Position numbers and translations under genes: made by a program. The notes beneath the pieces are model-generated. The model saw nothing but the letters and a program-made list of their open reading frames with translations. It did no database searches and had not been told where the DNA came from. A DNA stretch of 64,000 nucleotides from a bacterium (GTDB lineage Bacteria; Patescibacteriota; Minisyncoccia; Phycocordibacterales; UBA5272), in contig JAHFNB010000002.1 of the NCBI GenBank assembly GCA_023267595.1, positions 23,947 through 87,946 on the forward strand. The letters are read 5' to 3'. Shown here piece after piece: positions 510 through 56,924 of this stretch (position 1 is its first letter; the number at the start of each line of letters is the position of its first letter).

Positions 510-3050
510 ATGTCAATTATTTCAAAGTTTTTCCCTGATGAGTCTAAAAAGACTATTAAAAGTCTGTCTCCAATTGTGGATGCAGTTTTTGCGCATGAAG
601 AAGCATTGAAATCTCTCACAGATATAGAACTTAAACACAAAGGTATTTCTCTTAAGGAACGTGTTCAAAAAGAAATAGAAGGATTATCAGGTGTAGAATT
701 AAAGCGAAAAGAAAAAGAAATCCTTGACGAAGTCTTACCACTTGCATTTGCACTTGTTCGCGAAGCATCTCGTCGTACATTACATATGATGCATTACCGT
801 GTACAGGTTATTGGTGGAATACTTCTCCATCGTGGTCATATCGCAGAAATGCGTACTGGTGAAGGAAAAACACTTGCTGCAACATTACCTGCATATTTAA
901 ACGCACTCACTGGTCGTGGTGTACACATTGTTACGGTGAATGATTATTTGTCACGTCGTGATGCCGTATGGATGGGACAAGTTTATGATGCACTTGGTAT
1001 TAGTGTGTCAGTAATTAATCATCAATCATCATTTATGTATGATAGTGAACATTTAAATAAAGAGGAAAGTAAAGATGACGCAAAACGAGATGAAGTCGGG
1101 TCATACAAAGTTATCTATGATTTCTTAAAGCCATGTAATCGTCAGGATGCATATAAAGCAGATATTACCTATGGAACAAATAATGAATTTGGTTTTGACT
1201 ATTTACGTGACAATATTGGCTATAATAAAGAATTAATTACACAACATACCCATCACTATGCAATTGTTGATGAAATAGACTCTATTTTAATAGATGAAGC
1301 ACGAACCCCTCTTATTATTTCTGCACCTTCTGTTGAGTCTAGTGATATGTATACCAAGTTCGCACGTATTGCAGATTCTCTTATTGAAGGAGATGATTAT
1401 ACCGTAGATGAAAAACAACGAGCAATTGCACTTACTGAATCAGGAATTAATAAAGCAGAGAGTACACTTGGCATACAGAATATCTATTCTATAGAGGGAA
1501 TGAAGTATGTGCATCATCTTGAAACTGCAGTACGTGCCAAGGCGCTTTTTATAAAAGAGCGTGAATATGTTGTGCGAGATAATGCAGTTGTTATTGTGGA
1601 TGAGTTCACAGGGCGTATGCAACCAGGGCGTCGTTGGTCAGATGGATTGCACCAAGCAGTCGAAGCAAAAGAAGGAGTAAAGATTGAACAAGAGTCACGC
1701 ACACTTGCCTCTATTACATTTCAGAATTATTTTCGTTTCTATGAAAAGTTATCAGGAATGACAGGAACTGCAGATACTTCAAAAGAAGAGTTCTATAAAG
1801 TATATGGTCTTGTGGTGACCCCTGTTCCTACACATAATCCTATCAATCGTATTGATCATGAAGATTATATTTTCCAAACAGAAAAAGGTAAATGGCAAGC
1901 ACTTACCAGAAAGATACAAGAATTACATACAAAAGGCCAACCAGTACTCATAGGTACTATCTCTATTGAGAAAAACGAAGAGATTTCAAAGTATCTAGAA
2001 CGTGCAGGTATTCCTCATACTATCTTAAACGCAAAGAATCATGAGAAGGAAGGAGAAATTATTGCAGAAGCCGGAAAGAAAGGTGCAGTAACTATTGCAA
2101 CAAACATGGCAGGTCGTGGTGTGGATATTAAATTAGGAGGTCCAAGTGCAACTGATGCAGAGCGTGAAGAGGTGCTTTCACTTGGTGGATTATTCGTGAT
2201 TGGAACAGAACGTCACGAAGCACGTCGTATCGATAATCAGTTACGTGGACGTTCTGGTCGTCAAGGAGATAAAGGCGAGACACAATTTTACGTATCTCTA
2301 GAAGATGATCTCATGCGTGTGTTTGGATCAAGTAATATAAAAAGTATGATGGGACGTTTTGGTATTCCAGAGGATGAACCGGTTGCAAGTAAACTTGTAT
2401 CACGTGCTCTTGAAGGTGCACAAGAAAAAATAGAAGGATTTCACTTTGATACACGTAAACACACACTTCAGTATGATGATGTATTGAATCATCAACGTAC
2501 CAGTATTTATGACAAGCGTCGCAAAATCTTGTTTAATGATGAGTCATTCGTCGATGAAGTGTTCGCAGAATTAATTGCACAGAAACCTGAACTTGAGAAT
2601 ATTCTTGTACAAAAAGAAGAAAAATATACACGTGAGGCTGTGCGTCATATCGTGCGAGTTATGATGTTACAAATTATTGATACTTTATGGATGGAGCATT
2701 TGGATGCAATGGAACATTTACGAAACAGTGTGAATCTCCGTGCTTATGGTCAACGTGATCCGCTCGTTGAATATAAAAAAGAAGGATTACAAGCATTCCG
2801 ATCTCTTGAGCAGTCACTTCGTAATGAACTTATTGTATTTATTGAAAATATTGATGGATTTTTTGCTTCACAACAAGCCGCACAAAATCAGCAATTTGTT
2901 CCCGTTATGGGCAGTGGAGAAAAAAGCGGAAGTGCTCCATCAGATAAAATCGGTAGAAATGATACATGTCCTTGTGGTAGTGGCAAGAAGTGGAAGAAGT
3001 GTGGAGAATTAAATACTGATGAACACAAACAATTGATGGAGAAGAAATAA
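510..3050 (+). CDS. secA: Preprotein translocase ATPase SecA
   Basis: 846-aa ORF with the DEAD-like motor region (GEGKTL, TGRMQPGRRW) and the C-terminal zinc-binding CPCGSGKKWKKC tail typical of SecA. Confidence 0.95.
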   Translation: MSIISKFFPDESKKTIKSLSPIVDAVFAHEEALKSLTDIELKHKGISLKERVQKEIEGLSGVELKRKEKEILDEVLPLAFALVREASRRTLHMMHYRVQVIGGILLHRGHIAEMRTGEGKTLAATLPAYLNALTGRGVHIVTVNDYLSRRDAVWMGQVYDALGISVSVINHQSSFMYDSEHLNKEESKDDAKRDEVGSYKVIYDFLKPCNRQDAYKADITYGTNNEFGFDYLRDNIGYNKELITQHTHHYAIVDEIDSILIDEARTPLIISAPSVESSDMYTKFARIADSLIEGDDYTVDEKQRAIALTESGINKAESTLGIQNIYSIEGMKYVHHLETAVRAKALFIKEREYVVRDNAVVIVDEFTGRMQPGRRWSDGLHQAVEAKEGVKIEQESRTLASITFQNYFRFYEKLSGMTGTADTSKEEFYKVYGLVVTPVPTHNPINRIDHEDYIFQTEKGKWQALTRKIQELHTKGQPVLIGTISIEKNEEISKYLERAGIPHTILNAKNHEKEGEIIAEAGKKGAVTIATNMAGRGVDIKLGGPSATDAEREEVLSLGGLFVIGTERHEARRIDNQLRGRSGRQGDKGETQFYVSLEDDLMRVFGSSNIKSMMGRFGIPEDEPVASKLVSRALEGAQEKIEGFHFDTRKHTLQYDDVLNHQRTSIYDKRRKILFNDESFVDEVFAELIAQKPELENILVQKEEKYTREAVRHIVRVMMLQIIDTLWMEHLDAMEHLRNSVNLRAYGQRDPLVEYKKEGLQAFRSLEQSLRNELIVFIENIDGFFASQQAAQNQQFVPVMGSGEKSGSAPSDKIGRNDTCPCGSGKKWKKCGELNTDEHKQLMEKK

Positions 3051-3088
3051 GTTGCTGCAGATACTCTATGGTAGAATAGTATATATCT

Positions 3089-4369
3089 ATGAAAGATCTT
3101 GTTAAGCAACTCGTTGTTGCTATCCTTACATGGGAAGCAAAGGTAGTTCTCTCAAAATATAAACCGTTTATTATTGGTGTTACTGGAAACCTTGGAAAGA
3201 CGAGTACCAAAGATGCAATCTACGCAGTTATGAAACAACATGTGTATGTGCGTCGTAGTGAGAAGAGTTTAAATAGTGAGTTTGGTGTACCACTTACTAT
3301 ACTTGGTGAAAAATCAGGATGGAATAATCCACTTCGTTGGCTTATGATTATTGTAAGAGGTTTTTTCGTATCCTTTAAAAGTAATTATCCTACACATCTT
3401 GTGCTTGAAATTGGTGCAGATAGACCAGGGGATATACAAAAGGTTTCCAAATGGTTACATCCTGATATTGTTGTGGTAACACAATTTGGTCAAGTTCCCG
3501 TACATGTGGAGTTTTTTGAAAATAGAGATGCGGTGGTTAATGAGAAAGGATATCTTGTTGAGGTACTTAAAGATACTGGATTATTTATTTATAATGCAGA
3601 TGATAATGATGCTCAGAAATTATTAAGTAAGACACAAGCAAGAAAAGTAAGTGTAGGTATTCATGAACAAGCCGATATAAAGGCAAACAATGTACGTATG
3701 TATGGTACTCCACTTATAGGCACTGAAGCAGATGTACTTATTGAAGATAAAGAATATCATATTGTTTTACCTGAAGTTGTAGGTAAGTCCCCTATCTATT
3801 CATCACTTCCGGCATTAGCAATCGCGCGAGAGTTATCTATTCCACTTGAAATTGCGTGTGCATCTCTCCGGGATTCTGATAAACCAAAAGGTCGTATGCG
3901 ACTATTATCTGGTATGAACGGTTCAATCATTATTGATGATACCTATAATGCATCTCCAAAAGCAACAGAGCATGGTCTTAAGACTCTTGCTGATATAGAA
4001 ACAAAGGGGAGAAAAATTGCTGTGTTAGGGGATATGCTTGAACTCGGTGAGTTTACTCATGATGAACATTATAAGATCGGTAAAGTTGCGGCAAAGTCTT
4101 GTCATAAATTATATACAGTTGGAATACGCGCGCGAGTTATTGCAGAAGGTGCACTTGATGAAAAGATGGAGGATATCCATATTATGGAATGCGATACATC
4201 AGTGGATGCAGGTAAGGAATTGGTACAAGTACTTAAAGAAGGTGATGTTGTGTATGTTAAGGGTTCTCAGAGTATGCGTATGGAACGTGCTGTAAAAATG
4301 ATTCTTGCCGAGTCTCATGAGCCATACAAAGTCTTAGTTCGCCAAGAAAAAGATTGGCAAAAGAGATAA
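3089..4369 (+). CDS. murF: UDP-N-acetylmuramoyl-tripeptide--D-alanyl-D-alanine ligase (Mur ligase family)
   Basis: 426 aa with the Mur ligase P-loop GVTGNLGKTSTKD, a central domain and a C-terminal Mur ligase domain; its position after secA is compatible. Confidence 0.8.
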   Translation: MKDLVKQLVVAILTWEAKVVLSKYKPFIIGVTGNLGKTSTKDAIYAVMKQHVYVRRSEKSLNSEFGVPLTILGEKSGWNNPLRWLMIIVRGFFVSFKSNYPTHLVLEIGADRPGDIQKVSKWLHPDIVVVTQFGQVPVHVEFFENRDAVVNEKGYLVEVLKDTGLFIYNADDNDAQKLLSKTQARKVSVGIHEQADIKANNVRMYGTPLIGTEADVLIEDKEYHIVLPEVVGKSPIYSSLPALAIARELSIPLEIACASLRDSDKPKGRMRLLSGMNGSIIIDDTYNASPKATEHGLKTLADIETKGRKIAVLGDMLELGEFTHDEHYKIGKVAAKSCHKLYTVGIRARVIAEGALDEKMEDIHIMECDTSVDAGKELVQVLKEGDVVYVKGSQSMRMERAVKMILAESHEPYKVLVRQEKDWQKR

Positions 4370-4405
4370 GGCAGGGGTTCTGTGCTATAATTTCGGGTAC
4401 TTTTC

Positions 4406-4480
4406 GGCCCTATCGTCTATCGGTTAGGACGTATCCTTCTCAAGGATAAAAGCGCGGTTCGATTCCGCGTAGGGTCACCA
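4406..4480 (+). tRNA. tRNA-Glu (anticodon CTC), CCA encoded
   Basis: Hand-folded cloverleaf: acceptor GGCCCTA/TAGGGTC, anticodon arm TATCC-TTCTCAA-GGATA, T-arm CGCGG-TTCGATT-CCGCG, discriminator A plus CCA. An extended -10 (tgtgcTATAAT) lies about 15 nt upstream. Confidence 0.85.
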
Positions 4481-4536
4481 ATTAGTGCTAGTACGAGAGG
4501 TATGAAATAAATTTATTCAGTGTTATTATTGACAGT

Positions 4537-6258
4537 ATGAGTTTTAAGTTTAAATCAGAGGATAAATCAATTGAAGAAGCTTTGTTTGGAATAAACAACC
4601 TAAGAGTTCCTCAGTTTCAAAGGCCTTACACATGGGAAGAAGACCAGTGCGGGGATTTTTGGAATGATCTAACTGATGATGATTCTTTTTTTCTGGGACA
4701 ATTTATTCTTAACTTCGAAAACAAGGAAAAGGAAAAATTTGTAGACATTGTTGATGGTCAACAAAGAACGACAAGTATATTAATACTATGTGCCGTTTTC
4801 CGCGATAAGTTAAAAGAGTTAGGTTTTAACGATGACGCAGATGTAATACAGGACAATGTGATGATTAGTAGAAAAAGTTTTGACGGGCCAGTCTTTAAGG
4901 TGCTGGTTTCACCCAACGTTAGTTCTTTTTTTGAAAAACACATTCAAACGGGTCAGAATGTGATTCAAACTAATACTTCATTTGATAATGATGAAGAAAA
5001 GAGGGTGATAAAAAACTATCTATTTTTTAAGGAGCAACTTAATGAACGCCTGTCTGGTTTAGATTTAAGTCATCAAGTCAAAGAAATAAAAAGAATTCAA
5101 ACTTTTCTGCTCAACACTAGAATAATTGTTACAGAAATCTATGATGAAAATGATGCTTATGAAATTTTTGAATCTGTGAATAATACAGGTATAGAGCTTG
5201 GGGTTGCGGACCTATTAAAAAATTTCTTGTTCAAGAGAGTTAAAATTGAAGAAGGGGGTTCAGTGTCAGATATAATGGATAAATGGAATGAAGTTTTAGA
5301 AAATGTCCAAAATTCTGAATTAACAAAATTTATAAGATATTATTGGCTTTCAAAACAAAAGGTTTTTGTAACTGAAGCAAAATTGTTTAAAGCAATCAAA
5401 AATCACCCTATAACCAGTGGTAAAGTATTACTACAAGAGCTTGTCGATAACGCTAAAATCTATTATGATTTACGAAACCCTCTTGATGCTGATTTTCAAA
5501 ATGTAGAGAACGTAGAAAGAGTTAGAAATTCCCTCATAGGAATAAGAGAGATGAATATTACTCAATGTTATGTTTTATTACTCTCTATCTATAGAAATAA
5601 AGATAAGATTAATACAAATTGGATAACAGTTTTTGAGCTTATTGAAAAATTTAATTTTATTTATCATGCTGTATCAAAATTACCAGCAAATAAGGTAGAA
5701 AAATTGTATCAAGAACTTGCCTTTAAAATAGAAGACATTGTAAACAAGAATGAAAACAGTGATTCGATGAGAGTTATTTTGGAAACTGAATTCAATAATC
5801 TTGAGAATAAATTAAAATCACTATTGCCCCCTAAAGAGGTTTTTATTCTAGGTTTTTCAGATCTCACTTATAAAAAGAAAGGTCTATGTCGATATACATT
5901 ATCAAAAATCGAAGAAAGTTTTGGAACCAAAGAGTATGTGCTTAACCACCCTACAATTACCATTGAGCATATATTACCTCAAAAACCTGGGAAAGACTGG
6001 AATTTAACATCCGGACAAATAAAAAACTATGTTCACAATATAGGTAATTTAACATTACTAGGTAAAAAACCTAATGGCACAGTTCAAAATAAGTCTATTG
6101 CAGATAAAATCATTATTTTAAAAGAATCAACAGAAGTAAAAATAACCCAGAAACTACTTTCTCAGATTGAGCCTACTGGTATATGGAATGAGGAATCTAT
6201 TAAAAGTCGAGCTATAGAGTTGGCAAATGTTGCCTTTGATAAGGTCTGGAAAATCTAA
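4537..6258 (+). CDS. GmrSD-family type IV restriction endonuclease-like protein (DUF262 N-terminal ParB-like NTPase + DUF1524 C-terminal His-Me nuclease)
   Basis: 573 aa. N-terminus has the DUF262 signature IVDGQQRTTS and FESVNNTG. C-terminus has the DUF1524 His-Me finger pattern IEHILPQ ... HNIGNLTLL ... N. Confidence 0.75.
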   Translation: MSFKFKSEDKSIEEALFGINNLRVPQFQRPYTWEEDQCGDFWNDLTDDDSFFLGQFILNFENKEKEKFVDIVDGQQRTTSILILCAVFRDKLKELGFNDDADVIQDNVMISRKSFDGPVFKVLVSPNVSSFFEKHIQTGQNVIQTNTSFDNDEEKRVIKNYLFFKEQLNERLSGLDLSHQVKEIKRIQTFLLNTRIIVTEIYDENDAYEIFESVNNTGIELGVADLLKNFLFKRVKIEEGGSVSDIMDKWNEVLENVQNSELTKFIRYYWLSKQKVFVTEAKLFKAIKNHPITSGKVLLQELVDNAKIYYDLRNPLDADFQNVENVERVRNSLIGIREMNITQCYVLLLSIYRNKDKINTNWITVFELIEKFNFIYHAVSKLPANKVEKLYQELAFKIEDIVNKNENSDSMRVILETEFNNLENKLKSLLPPKEVFILGFSDLTYKKKGLCRYTLSKIEESFGTKEYVLNHPTITIEHILPQKPGKDWNLTSGQIKNYVHNIGNLTLLGKKPNGTVQNKSIADKIIILKESTEVKITQKLLSQIEPTGIWNEESIKSRAIELANVAFDKVWKI

Positions 6259-6408
6259 ATCTACGCACGAGAAGGGTCAAAATGATATGCTAAAAACAAA
6301 CAAATAAACCTTGTGGGGGGGAATGAACCCATTAAGTTCTACCTGTTGAACGCTCACAGATAACAATGAGCAGTATTTTGGTGCGATTTTCATATTTGTG
6401 ATCCTATA

Positions 6409-6430
6409 GCAAGCCAACTGCTTGGCTTGC
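6409..6430 (+). repeat. Small hairpin GCAAGCCAA-ctgc-TTGGCTTGC immediately preceding structured element copy C
   Basis: Perfect 9-bp stem with the same ctgc loop as the hairpin that precedes copy B. Confidence 0.5.
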
Positions 6431-6433
6431 GAA

Positions 6434-6517
6434 GGAATCGAATAGGGGTCGAGGAGTCTCCTGTTTCGAACGAAGTAAGAAACGAGACGAGGTGACCGAT
6501 TCCGCGTAGGGTCACAG
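6434..6517 (+). repeat. Structured GC-rich element, copy C (GGAATCG...GAATAGGGGTCG...TGACC-GATTCC + tRNA-Glu 3'-end mimic)
   Basis: Shares the outer-stem architecture and GAATAGGGGTCG box with copies A (26863-26951) and B (56687-56789, minus strand). It ends with a 19-nt copy of the tRNA-Glu 3' end. Confidence 0.5.
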
Positions 6518-6594
6518 AATTGTCTTTTACCAAAAAACCTTTATTTTATAAGGTTTTTTGGTTATTACTATATAGGTTTCTTGGGCTAAAATGC

Positions 6595-6623
6595 TTGACA
6601 AAGGTGTTTAAATCTGCTATAAT
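6595..6623 (+). promoter_or_regulatory. Sigma70-like promoter (TTGACA-17 nt-TATAAT) upstream of the 6755 gene
   Basis: cTTGACAaaggtgtttaaatctgcTATAATga matches the consensus. Confidence 0.4.
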
Positions 6624-6754
6624 GACACACAATAGTGGACGTGTAAATACCTTAGATTATCAACGTGTAATAACAACGATTTCTCTGGTATTTTATTTTC
6701 ACTCACTATTTTCAGAAGACACAGGACCGTTTTATGGAGCGTAACCATTAAACT

Positions 6755-7291
6755 ATGATCAAAAACATTTATAAGGTAAGTCAAATACTCGCGTTTGTGC
6801 CATTCATGGCCATCCCAAGTATCTCACTTGCTTCACATATTGGCTCACTGAAAACTGCTTCTGTAACCACAGAACAAGTCTCAGTTGAAGATCTCCGTCA
6901 AGAAAAAGCAGATGCCATCGATTCTTATTTTAAGGATCGTTCAATGCCACTTAAAGGTACAGGTATGACATTCGTACTCGTTGCCGAGAAGTATGGTCTT
7001 GATTGGCGTCTACTTCCTGCAATTGCAGTTCGTGAATCCTCAGGTGGAAAGAATGCGTGTGGAAACAATCCATTCGGTTGGGGATCATGTAAGTTACATA
7101 ACTTCGGAAGTTTTGAACAGGCTATTGAATCTCTAGGTAAAAACTTAGGAGGTGCTAACCCAAAGACTGCTCGATACTATGCTGGAAAGTCAACTGCAGA
7201 AAAGTTATATCACTATAACGGTACTGTACTTGCTACATATCCAGATGAAGTTACTGAAATTATGAAATTAATCGAGACCGATAATAGTTAA
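6755..7291 (+). CDS. Secreted peptidoglycan hydrolase-like protein (glucosaminidase / FlgJ-type lysozyme-like domain)
   Basis: N-terminal signal-like hydrophobic segment. The motif LLPAIAVRESSGGKNACGNNPFGWGS resembles the ALESGWG...NNLFGI core of GH73 glucosaminidase domains. Confidence 0.5.
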   Translation: MIKNIYKVSQILAFVPFMAIPSISLASHIGSLKTASVTTEQVSVEDLRQEKADAIDSYFKDRSMPLKGTGMTFVLVAEKYGLDWRLLPAIAVRESSGGKNACGNNPFGWGSCKLHNFGSFEQAIESLGKNLGGANPKTARYYAGKSTAEKLYHYNGTVLATYPDEVTEIMKLIETDNS

Positions 7292-8102: not shown

Positions 8103-8192
8103 GGAGAGATGGATGAGTGGTTTAAATCAACGGTTTACTAAACCGTCGACCTTTTATTAGGTCCGTGGGTTCGAATCCCACTCTCTCCGCCA
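8103..8192 (+). tRNA. Class II tRNA (long variable arm; anticodon loop TTACTAA gives apparent anticodon ACT, so assignment is uncertain)
   Basis: Acceptor GGAGAGA/TCTCTCC, anticodon arm ACGGT-TTACTAA-ACCGT, variable arm CGACCTTTTATTAGGTCC, T-arm GTGGG-TTCGAAT-CCCAC, discriminator G plus CCA. Confidence 0.7.
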
Positions 8193-23532: not shown

Positions 23533-24978
23533 GTGACAGATAACGAAGTGAGAGAAAATACCAAGATGCAAAAAACACTGAAACAATTACATGAAGAATT
23601 AAAATCAGGAACTCTTACAGTAGATGATTTGGTTTCATCGTATAAAAAAGTAATTAATGAAAAAGATGGAGAAATACATGCATTACTAGGTATGTATTCT
23701 GATTCATTAGTAGCATCACAAATTACAAAGGCAAAAGAAATGTTTGCAAATGGTACTGCGACTGTATTAACTGGTATACCTATTGTTTTAAAAGATAATA
23801 TTTTGGTGAAAGGTGAGTATGCAACTGGTGCTTCAAAGATTTTGGAAAACTATGTAGCAACATATGATGCAACTGTGGTAACACGATTAAAAGAAGCAGG
23901 TGCAATACTACTTGCACGTGCAAATATGGATGAATTTGCGATGGGTGGTTCAACGGAAAACTCTGCATTTGGTGTTACCAAAAATCCTTATGATCTCACA
24001 AAAGTATCTGGTGGATCATCCGGTGGGTCTGCTGCAGTTGTCGCGTATGGTGGAGTTCCTGTTTCTCTTGGATCAGACACTGGAGGGTCTATTCGTCAAC
24101 CTGCATCTTTTTGTGGTGTTGTAGGATTAAAGACTACGTACGGTGATGTATCACGCTATGGTCTTATGGCAATGGGAAGTTCTCTTGATCAGATTGGACC
24201 ATTTGGAAAAAGTGTAGAAGATGTAGAGGAAGTATACAAAATTATTAGTGGTTATGATGTACACGATAGTACTTCACTTAAAGACGGAGAGCGAGGAATC
24301 AAGAACGAAGAACAAATAAAAAAAGTTATTGGTGTACCACGAGATTTTATTAATCGTGACGGTATCGATAAAGAGGTAATTACAAACTTTAATGAATCTC
24401 TTGAAAAATTAAAAAAATCTGGATATCTTATAAAAGATATTACAATTCCAAATCTTGAGAAAGCATTGTCAGTGTATTACATTATTATGCCAGCAGAAGT
24501 TTCCAGTAACTTAGCACGATACGATGGTATCAGGTACGGGTTGTCTCGTGGTGGAGAAACGAGTATTCGTAGTTACTTTGAATCTCGGACTGCAGGATTT
24601 GGTGAAGAAGTTCGTCGTCGTATTTTATTAGGTACATATGTGCTTTCTTCTGGATATTATGATGCATATTATAATAAAGCAAATATTGTGCGTGCAATGC
24701 TTACCGAAGAATTTGTAAAAATATTTAAAGATGTAGATGTAATTGCAACACCAACTTCTCCAGTTCCTGCATTTGGAATTGGAGAAAAAACAAAAGATCC
24801 ACTTGCAATGTATTTGGCAGATATTTTTACAGTACCTGCAAACATTGTTGGAGTTCCTGCAATTTCAATTCCGAGTGGAAAAACAGAAAAAGGTCTTCCT
24901 TTTGGCATGCAGTTTACAGCAGCACATACTCGTGAGGATGTACTATTCACTATCGGTAAAGATTTTGAAAAGTTATAA
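23533..24978 (+). CDS. gatA: Glu/Asp-tRNA amidotransferase subunit A (amidase)
   Basis: Amidase signature GGSSGGSAAVVA and Ser-cisSer-Lys region. GTG start at 23533, with an alternative ATG at 23566. Confidence 0.9.
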   Translation: MTDNEVRENTKMQKTLKQLHEELKSGTLTVDDLVSSYKKVINEKDGEIHALLGMYSDSLVASQITKAKEMFANGTATVLTGIPIVLKDNILVKGEYATGASKILENYVATYDATVVTRLKEAGAILLARANMDEFAMGGSTENSAFGVTKNPYDLTKVSGGSSGGSAAVVAYGGVPVSLGSDTGGSIRQPASFCGVVGLKTTYGDVSRYGLMAMGSSLDQIGPFGKSVEDVEEVYKIISGYDVHDSTSLKDGERGIKNEEQIKKVIGVPRDFINRDGIDKEVITNFNESLEKLKKSGYLIKDITIPNLEKALSVYYIIMPAEVSSNLARYDGIRYGLSRGGETSIRSYFESRTAGFGEEVRRRILLGTYVLSSGYYDAYYNKANIVRAMLTEEFVKIFKDVDVIATPTSPVPAFGIGEKTKDPLAMYLADIFTVPANIVGVPAISIPSGKTEKGLPFGMQFTAAHTREDVLFTIGKDFEKL

Positions 24979-26430: not shown

Positions 26431-26501
26431 AGCGGAGTGGAGTAGAGGTAACTCACGAGGCTCATAACCTCGGGACACCAGTTCGATTCTGGTCTCCGCA
26501 A
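26431..26501 (+). tRNA. tRNA-Met (anticodon CAT), possibly initiator
   Basis: Anticodon arm CGAGG-CTCATAA-CCTCG, T-arm ACCAG-TTCGATT-CTGGT, acceptor AGCGGAG/CTCCGCA with unpaired 1:72 (A/A). CAT could also be tRNA-Ile2 (lysidine). Confidence 0.7.
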
Positions 26502-26527
26502 CAAGTAGTGCTACGTGACAAACACCA

Positions 26528-26568
26528 GGGAAGAAGCGCCCGCCACGTAGTGGCGGGCGCTTCTTCCC
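26528..26568. repeat. Perfect 19-bp GC-rich hairpin (GGGAAGAAGCGCCCGCCAC-gtag-GTGGCGGGCGCTTCTTCCC)
   Basis: Seen directly between the two tRNA-Met genes. The GC content is very atypical for this AT-rich window. Confidence 0.5.
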
Positions 26569-26627
26569 ATTAACATAAGTACTATCTTTTATCGGGCTTA
26601 TGGGTTACAGTTATTAAATAAAAATAT

Positions 26628-26757: not shown

Positions 26758-26831
26758 GCAGTCGTAGCTCAGCTGGTTAGAGCACCGCCCTGTCACGGCG
26801 GGGGTCGTGGGTTCAAATCCCATCGACTGCG
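26758..26831 (+). tRNA. tRNA-Asp (anticodon GTC)
   Basis: Acceptor GCAGTCG/CGACTGC, anticodon arm CCGCC-CTGTCAC-GGCGG, T-arm GTGGG-TTCAAAT-CCCAT. Confidence 0.85.
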
Positions 26832-26839
26832 CAAAAAGT

Positions 26840-26857
26840 AACTGACCTATATCAGTT
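26840..26857 (+). repeat. Small hairpin (AACTGA-cctata-TCAGTT) preceding structured element copy A
   Basis: Same relative position as the hairpins that precede copies B and C. Confidence 0.4.
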
Positions 26858-26862
26858 GCGTT

Positions 26863-26951
26863 GGGATTTGAATAGGGGTTGCGAAATTACTTCGAGCCTG
26901 CCTCGCCGTTAGGCGGGCAACGCGAGGCAGGTTTGCGACCAAATCCTATCA
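26863..26951 (+). repeat. Structured GC-rich element, copy A (GGGATTTGAATAGGGGTTGCGAAATTACTTCGAGCCTGCCTCGCC...GCGAGGCAGGTTTGCGACCAAATCCTATCA)
   Basis: Nested inverted repeats GGATTTG/CAAATCC and CCTGCCTCGC/GCGAGGCAGG. Roughly 75% identical to the minus-strand element at 56687-56789, with compensatory changes. The 3' end mimics the tRNA-Asp 3' end (about 15 of 18 nt). Confidence 0.5.
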
Positions 26952-27002
26952 CTAGTAGTATTTGCATATTTTTCTCGACCATGTTAGATTTCACAATATT
27001 AT

Positions 27003-56686: not shown

Positions 56687-56789
56687 TTGTGCCGGGGGTG
56701 GGACTTGGTCACAAAACTACCTCGCATTGCTCGCCTGCCGGTGAGGTAGGCTCGAAGTAGTTTCGCGACCCCATATTCAAGTCCCACAC
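56687..56789 (-). repeat. Structured GC-rich element, copy B (minus-strand sense GTGTGGGACTTGAATATGGGGTCGCGAAACTACTTCGAGCCTACCTCACC...GCGAGGTAGTTTTGTGACCAAGTCCCACCCCCGGCA)
   Basis: Homologous to copy A with compensatory changes in both stems. Its last 21 nt (plus-strand TTGTGCCGGGGGTGGGACTTG, 56687-56707) exactly duplicate the 3' end of tRNA-Leu at 56841-56861. It is preceded in the minus-strand sense by hairpin AAAAGTGAC-ctgc-GTCACTTTT (56790-56810). Confidence 0.5.
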
Positions 56790-56843
56790 AAAAGTGACGC
56801 AGGTCACTTTTTCCCAACACAAAATCATTTCATTCTTTTTTTG

Positions 56844-56924
56844 TGCCGGGGGTGGGACTTGAACCCACACACCTTACGATACACGATTTTGAGTCGTGCG
56901 CGTCTACCATTCCGCCACCCCGGC
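56844..56924 (-). tRNA. tRNA-Leu (anticodon CAA), class II
   Basis: Minus-strand fold: acceptor GCCGGGG/CCCCGGC, anticodon arm CACGA-CTCAAAA-TCGTG, long variable arm, T-arm GTGGG-TTCAAGT-CCCAC. Confidence 0.85.

Follow-up and report, generated by a model that had tools for sequence, protein, structure and literature searches.

Between positions 4406 and 6517 of the 64,000-nt stretch analysed here (positions 23,947 to 87,946 of contig JAHFNB010000002.1, assembly GCA_023267595.1, from a bacterium of the GTDB lineage Patescibacteriota; Minisyncoccia; Phycocordibacterales; UBA5272; hereafter the window, whose numbering is used throughout), a tRNA-Glu gene is followed by a single restriction-like gene of the GmrSD family and then by an exact 19-nt repeat of the tRNA 3' end. 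An initial annotation had taken this repeat, together with a GC-rich structured element that contains it, as the boundary or scar of one small integrated element with GmrSD as its cargo. Comparison with related loci points instead to two independent features that are superimposed, namely, I) an integrase-less GmrSD cassette (4479-6357), and II) a resident tRNA-trailer unit (6389-6517), of which the 19-nt repeat is a part. We give this reading a probability of about 0.7. The unit belongs to a family of structured elements tied to tRNA 3' ends that is apparently undescribed and without an Rfam model.

The tRNA-Glu gene (anticodon CTC; 4406-4480, plus strand) is called by ARAGORN and by the Rfam tRNA model (55.9 bits), and the tRNAs of L004 and L008 are 100% identical to it (L001-L053 are labels of the compared loci, which come from related genomes and metagenome assemblies). 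The 19-mer CGATTCCGCGTAGGGTCAC, which runs from C56 of the tRNA T-loop through the first base past the discriminator, has two exact copies in the window, at 4460-4478 and 6497-6515; a third is absent at up to 3 mismatches, and 0 are expected from 100 shuffles. Between the two copies lies a single, intact open reading frame (ORF; 4537-6258). The initial annotation had allowed for the distal copy being part of a second functional tRNA gene, and none was found by ARAGORN or Rfam at 6400-6520. A tRNA split by a group I intron was rejected as well, as no cloverleaf or intron model fits 6400-6520; group I introns of Patescibacteria sit at anticodon loop position 35/36, not in the T-loop (PMC13011429). 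Neither a large serine recombinase nor a Y1 transposase gave a tblastn match in the interval or in the window, and an XerD-like recombinase gave none in the window, a weak test with an approximate query sequence. In these respects, i.e., a tRNA-3' repeat, one GmrSD ORF, no recombinase and no second tRNA, the initial description of the locus was accurate.

The relationship between gene and structured element becomes visible in genomes that lack the gene. With MurF (3089-4369) as query, six genomes of the candidate phyla radiation (CPR; Paceibacterota-like) were obtained, with 75-80% amino acid (aa) identity. At L005, the order MurF, tRNA-Glu, promoter, downstream gene is that of the window, and the distance from tRNA to promoter is 282 bp versus 2.1 kb. 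These 282 bp are made up of an AT-rich terminator-like hairpin (T1) and a structured unit without cargo. A tRNA-Glu followed by T1 and unit but not by GmrSD is present in L005/L041 and in L027; the L005 site is orthologous, and L027 was obtained from the pattern scan described below. L008 has a decayed structured element at its tRNA-Glu. The empty site that had been anticipated in relatives thus exists, and the comparison with L005 identifies the GmrSD gene as an insertion relative to L005 and the structured element as no part of that insertion. On its other side, tRNA-Glu is separated from MurF by 36 nt in the window versus 0.7-1.9 kb of unrelated genes in relatives (L005 7292-7960, L008 7282-9160, L009 7283-8250), so that both sides of this tRNA-Glu are variable.

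The ends of the cassette were located by comparison with L050 and L053. L050 holds the closest homologue with usable flanks (86% aa identity), 3' of a tRNA-Glu-TTC in an FtsA/FtsZ/TrxB context. The window, L050 and L053 have in common a left-flank motif, an extended -10 element near the ATG and about 100 nt past the stop codon, which gives a cassette of 1,879 bp (4479-6357, plus strand) composed of the left-end motif CAATTAGTGCTA, a promoter, the ORF and a conserved 3' flank (6259-6357). On the left, homology with L050 starts just 3' of an attL-like core, GGTCAC (4473-4478), the final tRNA bases preceding the cassette; the junction, marked here by a slash, reads GGGTCAC/CAATTAG at 4478/4479 (in longer form GTAGGGTCAC/CAATTAGTGC) and GGGTCAC/CATTGACGG in L050. 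On the right, alignment of the 3' flank (scores 37.5 with L050 and 32.5 with L053; shuffles -4.9 and -4.2, sd 4.1) stops exactly at the attR-like core GCTCAC (6352-6357), 140 nt short of the distal 19-nt repeat. The right junction reads GCTCAC/AGATAAC at 6357/6358 (longer form TTGAACGCTCAC/AGATAAC), and AAACGCTCAC/AAATT in L050, where that tRNA's own terminator follows. The cassette-bearing tRNAs of the window and L050 encode CCA; cargo-less relatives do not, reading GGTCAC/A at this point. The final 24 nt of the cassette (6334-6357, AAGTTCTACCTGTTGAACGCTCAC) mimic the tRNA-Glu 3' half as GTTC-N14-TCAC with the spacing found in 4457-4478, and this tRNA-like right arm is identical to the tRNA at 13 of 24 positions (read by eye), with a core of 4-6 nt.

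What follows the cassette (6358-6394, plus strand) is the original tRNA-Glu trailer, a remnant of the T1 hairpin displaced by the cassette. When 4478 is joined to 6358-6409, the tRNA end and the anti-acceptor segment of the unit form a 15-bp stem (z = -4.7) like T1 of the cargo-less L005 and L008. The homology breakpoints and this re-joined T1-like fold place the insertion at 4479-6357, between the tRNA on one side and its trailer and unit on the other. The 19-nt repeat is accordingly not where the insertion ends, and it is also not specific to loci with cargo: cargo-less units (L005, L027, L047 and the tRNA-Leu unit of the window) carry such copies, perfect or degenerate. Since cargo-less units have the same copy and the breakpoints are separate from it, the duplicate predates the cassette, which is close to the outcome that the initial annotation had itself named as speaking against integration, a coincidental duplicate or ancestral region. 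An earlier candidate for the displaced tRNA end, GAGAAGGGTCA (6268-6278), was dropped, as it is conserved cassette sequence and the junction is really at 6357.

Homologues of the GmrSD gene (66-90% identity) have other, unrelated genes around them, yet they too immediately follow a tRNA, e.g., tRNA-Glu-TTC (L013, L050), another tRNA-Glu-CTC (L015/L016) or tRNA-Gln (L020-L022); one more (L048) is on a contig with a rolling-circle Rep gene. The ORF is 74-79% identical to its homologues elsewhere at the nucleotide level, and nucleotide homology with the more distant loci is limited to the ORF. In none of these loci, L050 included, did the covariance model described below find a structured unit, and no distal tRNA repeat was found in the other GmrSD loci at up to 5 mismatches in 19, several of these contigs ending just past the gene. 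The proposal that GmrSD is horizontally moving, integrase-less cargo at tRNA 3' ends is borne out by the same cassette at the tRNA-Glu-TTC of L050; its union with the structured element into one combined element is contradicted by cassettes elsewhere without a unit.

Several further observations concern this and other tRNA sites. At L004 (7282-8160), the identical tRNA-Glu, which also encodes its CCA, is in inverted orientation with respect to MurF and the downstream gene, and a GGDEF-type gene comes next. Two junction cores lie 4 nt apart at the 3' end of this tRNA (GGGTCACCAAAGGGTCACAATTTG), which looks like a scar left either by cassette turnover or by inversion between repeats of the tRNA half. 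In the window, CAAGTAGTGCTA directly 3' of tRNA-Met (26431-26502) matches the cassette left-end motif. This motif has only two matches in the window (4479-4490 and the one after tRNA-Met), each abutting a tRNA 3' end, and the site after tRNA-Met (26502-26600) may be a remnant of a related insertion. Further 3' of tRNA-Met and the motif is a perfect 19-bp GC-rich hairpin (26528-26568, 'copy A'), which the covariance model rejected as a structured unit. Between tRNA-Glu-TTC and GmrSD in L013 (4791-5000), there are a trailer hairpin that includes the tRNA end and a GC-rich hairpin (GTCGATGCACC...GGTGCAGGCGAC) whose GAGCGTAGCGAAGC loop region recalls the P3 hairpin of the unit. This region may be a very divergent unit, with the cassette 3' rather than 5' of it. 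Independent Logan assemblies of the source samples (L001-L003; window 1172-4435 and 4450-6831) break inside tRNA-Glu, between 4435 and 4452, and continue unbroken across the distal 19-nt repeat. The breaks could reflect tRNA sequence common to several organisms or population heterogeneity at the cassette junction, and were set aside as uninformative.

The gene of the cassette (4537-6258, plus strand; 573 aa) is a type IV restriction-like defence gene of the GmrSD family (DUF262 and DUF1524). Both Pfam domains exceed their cutoffs, GmrSD_N with E 2.5e-34 (119.6 bits versus 33.2) and GmrSD_C with E 3.9e-21 (75.8 bits versus 23), and the product carries the motifs IVDGQQRTTS (DGQQR) and TIEHILPQ...HNIGNLTLL (EHILPQ/HN, His-Me-type). 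It matches PADLOC defence-candidate models (HEC-06/Orf5/SspE-like, E 4.7e-93) and, distantly (E about 1e-6), the DUF262 protein of PDB entry 9jfl and SspE. The domains and motifs are those of GmrSD/BrxU/SspE-type nucleases. Unlike in those systems, the gene stands alone, without BREX or Ssp partners, and its similarity to solved or characterised members is distant. Family-level annotation and the PADLOC candidate models suggest a putative role in phage defence by cutting modified DNA (e.g., DNA with glucosyl-hydroxymethylcytosine). A promoter-like site with an extended -10 (TG-TATTAT; 4502-4529, plus strand) lies 8 nt upstream of the ATG, and an equivalent TGnTAtnAT precedes the ATG in L050, L053, L048 and L013; the transcript is probably leaderless or short-leadered. 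The initial annotation had proposed composition as a check on foreign origin, with a mixed result: GC content deviates (0.314 versus 0.364 window-wide), and GC3 does not, being like that of the flanking genes, so that composition is only mildly deviant.

The resident unit (6389-6517, plus strand; copy C of the initial annotation) scores 76.5 bits with the covariance model (E 1.6e-17), and 6395-6520 folds with -53.4 kcal/mol (z = -5.8 against shuffles). All of its parts lie on the plus strand. It starts with the anti-acceptor segment TTTGTGATCCTAT (6395-6407), the complement, with G·U pairs, of GTAGGGTCACA(GA); this is supported by the fold and by the orthologous segments, CTGTGATCA/CTGTGGTCA, of L005, L047 and L027. 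Hairpin hp1 (6409-6430) has the family-conserved CUGC loop, and all 9 of its pairs covary (helix 1). The anti-T segment GGAATCGAA (6434-6442) is the complement of tRNA positions T54-C62 (TTCGATTCC) and forms stem P1 with 6497-6503, as indicated by the fold and by covariation in helix 2. It is overlapped by the bulge GAATAGGGG (6440-6448), whose columns are invariant in a 35-sequence alignment of the family. The P2/P3 scaffold hairpin (6447-6497; fold, helices 3-6, conserved G·U pairs) is of a subtype common to L027 12021-12112, and the direct copy of the tRNA-Glu 3' half (6497-6515), from C56 to the first base past the discriminator, forms the 3' module. A hairpin with U-tract resembling an intrinsic terminator (6530-6561, plus strand; seen in the sequence as an inverted match) closes the tRNA and unit region, and the strong promoter of the next gene follows (6595-6623, plus strand; promoter score 12/12).

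Two other units are present in the window, both without cargo, as the initial annotation had noted of its end element. One (26818-26960, plus strand; 83.7 bits, anti-T match 11/12) has tRNA-Asp (26758-26832) as its cognate. The other (56687-56831, minus strand; 105.4 bits) belongs to tRNA-Leu-CAA (56843-56924, minus strand); its anti-T segment matches at 12/12 and its distal copy at 14/14, and the tRNA 3' half is copied without mismatch over at least 19 nt.

To assess the family, metagenomes were scanned with a core pattern, which returned 25 loci, and a covariance model was then built from 35 copies. The model finds 39 units in 24 of the 25 scanned loci, a further 3 in the window and one apiece in L004 and L005, i.e., at least 44 units from Paceibacteria-like genomes, associated with at least 14 tRNA species and with tmRNA. 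The suspicion that small structured elements tied to tRNA 3' ends form a real family has therefore been substantiated. A tRNA on the same strand lies 29-369 nt upstream, usually 64-113 nt, in 25 of 37 units, and the tRNAs concerned include Thr, Val, Arg, Glu (CTC, TTC), Leu (TAG, CAA, TAA), Lys, Cys, Ser, Gly, Pro, Gln and Asp. In L025 (8547-8668, minus strand), a unit lies 3' of smpB and of a tmRNA-like 3' end GGGAGTTCGATTCTCCCCACCTCCACA, which was read by eye and is not called by ARAGORN. The common plan consists of the tRNA 3' end, the T1 hairpin, the anti-acceptor, hp1 (with a CUGC or CUUC loop), the anti-T segment, an invariant GAAUA(N)GGGG bulge, a P2/P3 hairpin ending in GUGAC, and a tRNA copy from C56 to the 3' end. 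This distal copy is present in nearly all units examined, beginning at C56 right after the fixed GTGAC.

Each unit is matched to its own tRNA. The anti-T segment together with GAA is the complement of the neighbouring tRNA from T54 to about N64, and matches the cognate tRNA at a mean of 10.6 of 12 positions versus 7.9 of 12 for non-cognate tRNAs; for the distal copy, the values are 11.2 and 7.8 of 14. L031, L047 and the tRNA-Leu and tRNA-Glu units of the window have copies without mismatches over at least 19 nt; in others, the copy is decayed. In L024, anti-T and distal copy are consistent with one another, and both depart from the tRNA sequence, which suggests that internal pairing, not the match to the tRNA, is what is kept.

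The fold is a three-way junction on the tRNA strand. In the alignment, 93.7% of paired cells are complementary versus 34-45% when the partner columns are slid; changes on both sides occur in 22 of 33 pairs (162 cells), and 0 of 500 shuffles reach the observed value. Such covariation indicates selection on the fold. G·U pairs at three positions hardly vary (33/35, 28/35 and 30/35); since the opposite strand would have C·A mismatches in their place, the fold belongs to the tRNA (plus) strand, as RNA or as single-stranded DNA. An idiosyncratic anti-acceptor (GTGATC or GTGGTC, with G·U pairs) is common to the tRNA-Glu units of L005, L027, L047 and the window, whose P3 hairpins have undergone compensatory changes. 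These units have the look of old orthologues rather than of new arrivals, and the unit has been retained at orthologous sites over the long term.

Near-identical scaffolds occur across tRNA species within one genome (L026, L045 and the window, where the Asp and Leu units share a GC-rich P3 extension), and tandem arrays of 2-3 units follow a single tRNA, each unit ending in the same tRNA 3'-half copy (L042 9469-9777; L043 1-482; L044 5968-6314; L039 4233-4630). A unit follows tRNA-Ser-ACT in L004 and not in the window. Shared scaffold variants, tandem arrays and presence or absence at orthologous tRNAs are features typical of duplicative, concerted behaviour. The tRNA-Ser with anticodon ACT (window 8103-8192; L004 12140-12229) stands in tandem with tRNA-Ser-GCT, and its unmodified-looking A34 is unusual. 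In two loci, L036 (minus strand, past the core at 6001-6029) and L038 (past the core at 601-628), the distal copy is interrupted by a conserved insert of about 25 nt, GAAYTAGCARRTTCATGTCTTGGA, which can form a T-arm-like hairpin (CAGG-UUCAUGU-CUUG) and makes the unit look cloverleaf-like.

Searches of existing resources did not return the family. With Rfam 15, only tRNAs pass the gathering threshold in the window, and in E-value mode the regions 6250-6760 and L026 2150-2800 (two canonical units) gave only tRNAs and sub-threshold hairpin matches. The 2.9 million viral contigs of IMG/VR contain 0 matches, and a limited literature search turned up no earlier account of the unit. Kink-turn, T-loop, H/ACA-like, RNase P external-guide and self-primed snap-back readings were considered, none of which fitted well enough.

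GmrSD is not the only cargo found between a tRNA and a unit. In L037, tRNA-Gln and its cognate unit are separated by a 5.9-kb element that encodes a large serine recombinase, a rolling-circle Rep (without tblastn-level similarity to the Rep of L048) and two secreted proteins; the 3' end of the recombinase gene overlaps the tRNA on the opposite strand. The island between tRNA-Asn and its cognate unit in L033 (11.8 kb) combines a type III restriction-modification system with a serine recombinase related to that of L037 (31% identity), and in L036 a DUF4440 gene occupies the equivalent place. At their junctions, L037 and L033 have no more than 5-8 nt in common with the extreme tRNA 3' end, a short core as in the window. 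A different insertion is seen in L040 (1-880), where an IS200-like Y1_Tnp gene (E 4.6e-16) has entered the trailer hairpin of a tRNA-Gln-type unit; it is bounded by its own inverted repeats GGGGACAGCCAC/GTGGCTGTCCCC and a direct duplication of about 65 nt, not by units. As this is the sole Y1 transposase seen, with inverted repeats of its own, and none is in the window, the idea of a helper of the HUH or IS200 type acting in trans was not upheld.

On the basis of these data, the following course of events is proposed. Site-specific recombination at the very 3' end of tRNA-Glu, with G(G/C)TCAC as core, would have brought in the cassette; the incoming left end of the cassette would supply the CCA of the tRNA, and the original trailer would have been shifted to 6358. 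The site before insertion would read GTAGGGTCAC/AGATAACAATG and the joint of the excised circle TTGAACGCTCAC/CAATTAGTGCTA. The recombinase may have acted in trans or may since have been lost, and the likeliest type is a large serine recombinase like those of islands at the equivalent tRNA position: given the recombinases and short-core junctions of L037 and L033, this is the most economical catalyst for the GmrSD cassette. The unit would be transcribed as the tail of the tRNA unit and retained for its fold, with the internal copy of the tRNA 3' half keeping the anti-tRNA segments from invading the tRNA. Units may spread and homogenise among tRNA genes via the T-loop and 3'-half repeats that these have in common, and mobile cargo may use the interval from tRNA to unit as its landing zone. 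With modest confidence, we prefer to interpret the unit as a structured RNA produced as the tail of transcribed tRNA units.

In many ways, the cassette is comparable to the tRNA/tmRNA islands of the Islander collection (PMC4383910) and to the tycheposons of Prochlorococcus (bioRxiv 10.1101/2020.12.28.424599). In these islands, too, defence cargo sits where a tRNA gene ends, with the tRNA end restored by the incoming DNA and tRNA-like sequence (in the cassette a match of 13 of 24 positions) at the far junction; successive or decayed insertions occur at one tRNA, and some elements have large serine recombinases. As in such islands, the cassette is inserted at the 3' part of a tRNA that remains intact, and both an empty site and an equivalent site elsewhere are found. 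Unlike these islands, it consists of one gene without an integrase inside, shares a core of 4-6 nt and no long displaced fragment, and the 19-nt repeat belongs to the unit. In its behaviour, the cassette resembles an integrase-less remnant or satellite of tRNA-integrating islands and, looked at by itself, is a rather ordinary defence cassette at a tRNA hot spot.

Several points weigh against the proposed scheme. The recombinase was found in neither the cassette nor the 64-kb window, so that the catalyst is inferred from the other islands. The junction core is just 4-6 nt and the right arm matches at 13 of 24 positions, which keeps microhomology-mediated illegitimate recombination a candidate mechanism. 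The composition of the cassette hardly deviates, making compositional foreignness a weak argument. As for the unit, it comes without an associated protein, and a role as a transcribed RNA is a prediction from sequence; the literature search behind its novelty was limited; the L024 unit, whose anti-T and copy differ from the tRNA, suggests maintenance of the fold rather than of the tRNA match; and perfect next to decayed copies, tandem arrays and scaffold variants within a genome fit a selfish mobile element equally well.

The last point leads to a reading that we consider unlikely, in which units are selfish mini-elements or recombination sites that fold as single strands, comparable to integron attC or to the attP hairpin of the CTX phage. 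In this case, the stems anti-T:T' and anti-acceptor:acceptor' would rebuild a duplex image of the tRNA gene's 3' half for a recombinase that acts in trans and inserts units, and possibly cargo, at T-loops. The strand-specific structure with conserved bulge and loop would suit such a site, and the near-identical scaffolds at many tRNA species per genome (L026, L045, window), the variable presence at tRNA-Ser-ACT (L004 versus the window), the tandem arrays of L042-L044 and the distal copy that always starts at C56 after a fixed GTGAC would fit as well. Against this, no recombinase is consistently nearby, the viral contigs hold no units, all cargo seen lies outside the unit at the extreme tRNA 3' end, and tRNA-Glu units persist with compensatory changes across genomes of 75-80% MurF identity; no mechanism, moreover, explains how three segments would be re-matched for every new tRNA. 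With respect to known classes, units are like REP/REPIN and IS200/IS605 PATE repeats in being short, abundant, strand-oriented intergenic hairpins with a conserved fold and dispersed copies per genome. They are unlike these in being tied to tRNA/tmRNA 3' ends, in having target-matched segments and in that no flanking RAYT or TnpA was found; assignment to the REPIN-RAYT/PATE class was rejected, the sole Y1 gene (L040) being flanked by its own repeats and not by units. Units also share strand specificity, bulged conserved bases and internal target-complementary segments with attC, with CTX-phage attP(+) and with the IS110 bridge RNA (PMC11208160). Integron attC was rejected, as the unit consensus has no GTTRRRY/RYYYAAC boxes (read by eye), no IntI or tyrosine recombinase was detected, and cargo lies outside the unit. 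An IS110/IS1111 bridge or seek RNA was rejected, as no DEDD recombinase adjoins units and both anti-T and anti-acceptor are paired to the internal target copy. The unit thus resembles REP-like repeats, attC/CTX sites and bridge RNAs in single respects and fails the defining features of each.

Distinctly less probable, to our minds, is that units form a new class of programmable nucleic-acid elements, in which a constant scaffold, a bipartite anti-tRNA segment split by a hairpin and the 19-nt copy are read by a trans-encoded enzyme. In that case, the enzyme would read RNA or folded single-stranded DNA to recognise the region from T-loop to 3' end of specific tRNA genes, and could serve the spreading of units, the steering or blocking of integrases at tRNA hot spots, or action on tRNA precursors.

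Very little weight is left to the single element of the initial annotation, by which GmrSD and the structured end form one non-autonomous element of about 2.05 kb in the T-loop of tRNA-Glu, with the 19-nt repeats as attL and attR. An exact tRNA-3' repeat around the interval is indeed the classical island footprint of the Islander model (PMC4383910), and GmrSD homologues are repeatedly tRNA-adjacent. This reading is already largely refuted by the breakpoints at 4479 and 6357 with a re-joined trailer that folds as T1, by cargo-less units with the same repeat in L031, L047 and at tRNA-Leu of the window, by orthologous tRNA-Glu units without GmrSD (L005, L027) and by the cassette without a unit in L050.

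Slightly harder still to credit is a guide-like RNA, analogous to bridge and seek RNAs or to the omega RNAs of TnpB, in which a nuclease or recombinase encoded in trans would find tRNA genes or tRNAs by means of anti-T and anti-acceptor (about 22 nt in total) or of the 3' copy. A constant scaffold joined to variable, target-matched segments in a plus-strand fold is what such an RNA would look like, and the 3' module (19 nt, preceded in the tRNA by a conserved GGTT) is guide-like in length and position. The candidate guides are, however, base-paired to each other within the unit rather than exposed in loops, each unit adjoins its own target, which neither kind of system requires, and no DEDD, TnpB, IscB or Cas gene was seen in about 50 loci, which were not exhaustively scanned.

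Least credible is that the gene is ancestral at this site and was deleted in relatives, its tRNA adjacency being coincidence or an ancestral tRNA-Glu-GmrSD pair: GC3 is like that of flanking genes and several homologues adjoin tRNA-Glu, but different tRNA-Glu genes are involved (CTC versus TTC), next to unrelated genes; one homologue lies on a contig with a Rep gene and one at tRNA-Gln, the precise junctions leave the trailer hairpin intact, and the gene is missing from this site in relatives whose MurF is 75-80% identical.

The mobile elements of CPR bacteria are poorly known. If two superimposed features are indeed what this locus holds, it illustrates that a textbook footprint, a tRNA-3' direct repeat around foreign cargo, can mislead, in that the repeat is part of a resident element and the junction lies elsewhere; the distance from a tRNA to its cognate unit may then be a practical marker for delimiting islands. 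The cassette would represent a one-gene, integrase-less defence module that hops between tRNA-Glu genes of ultra-small CPR bacteria. The unit family offers a handle on tRNA-locus biology in CPR genomes, whether as a tRNA-processing or insulating RNA or as a tRNA-targeted mobile site. Its units are also a candidate source of sequence-programmable recognition, and should the programmable class prove real, it would be a guide-like or att-mimic system in CPR bacteria without a described counterpart.

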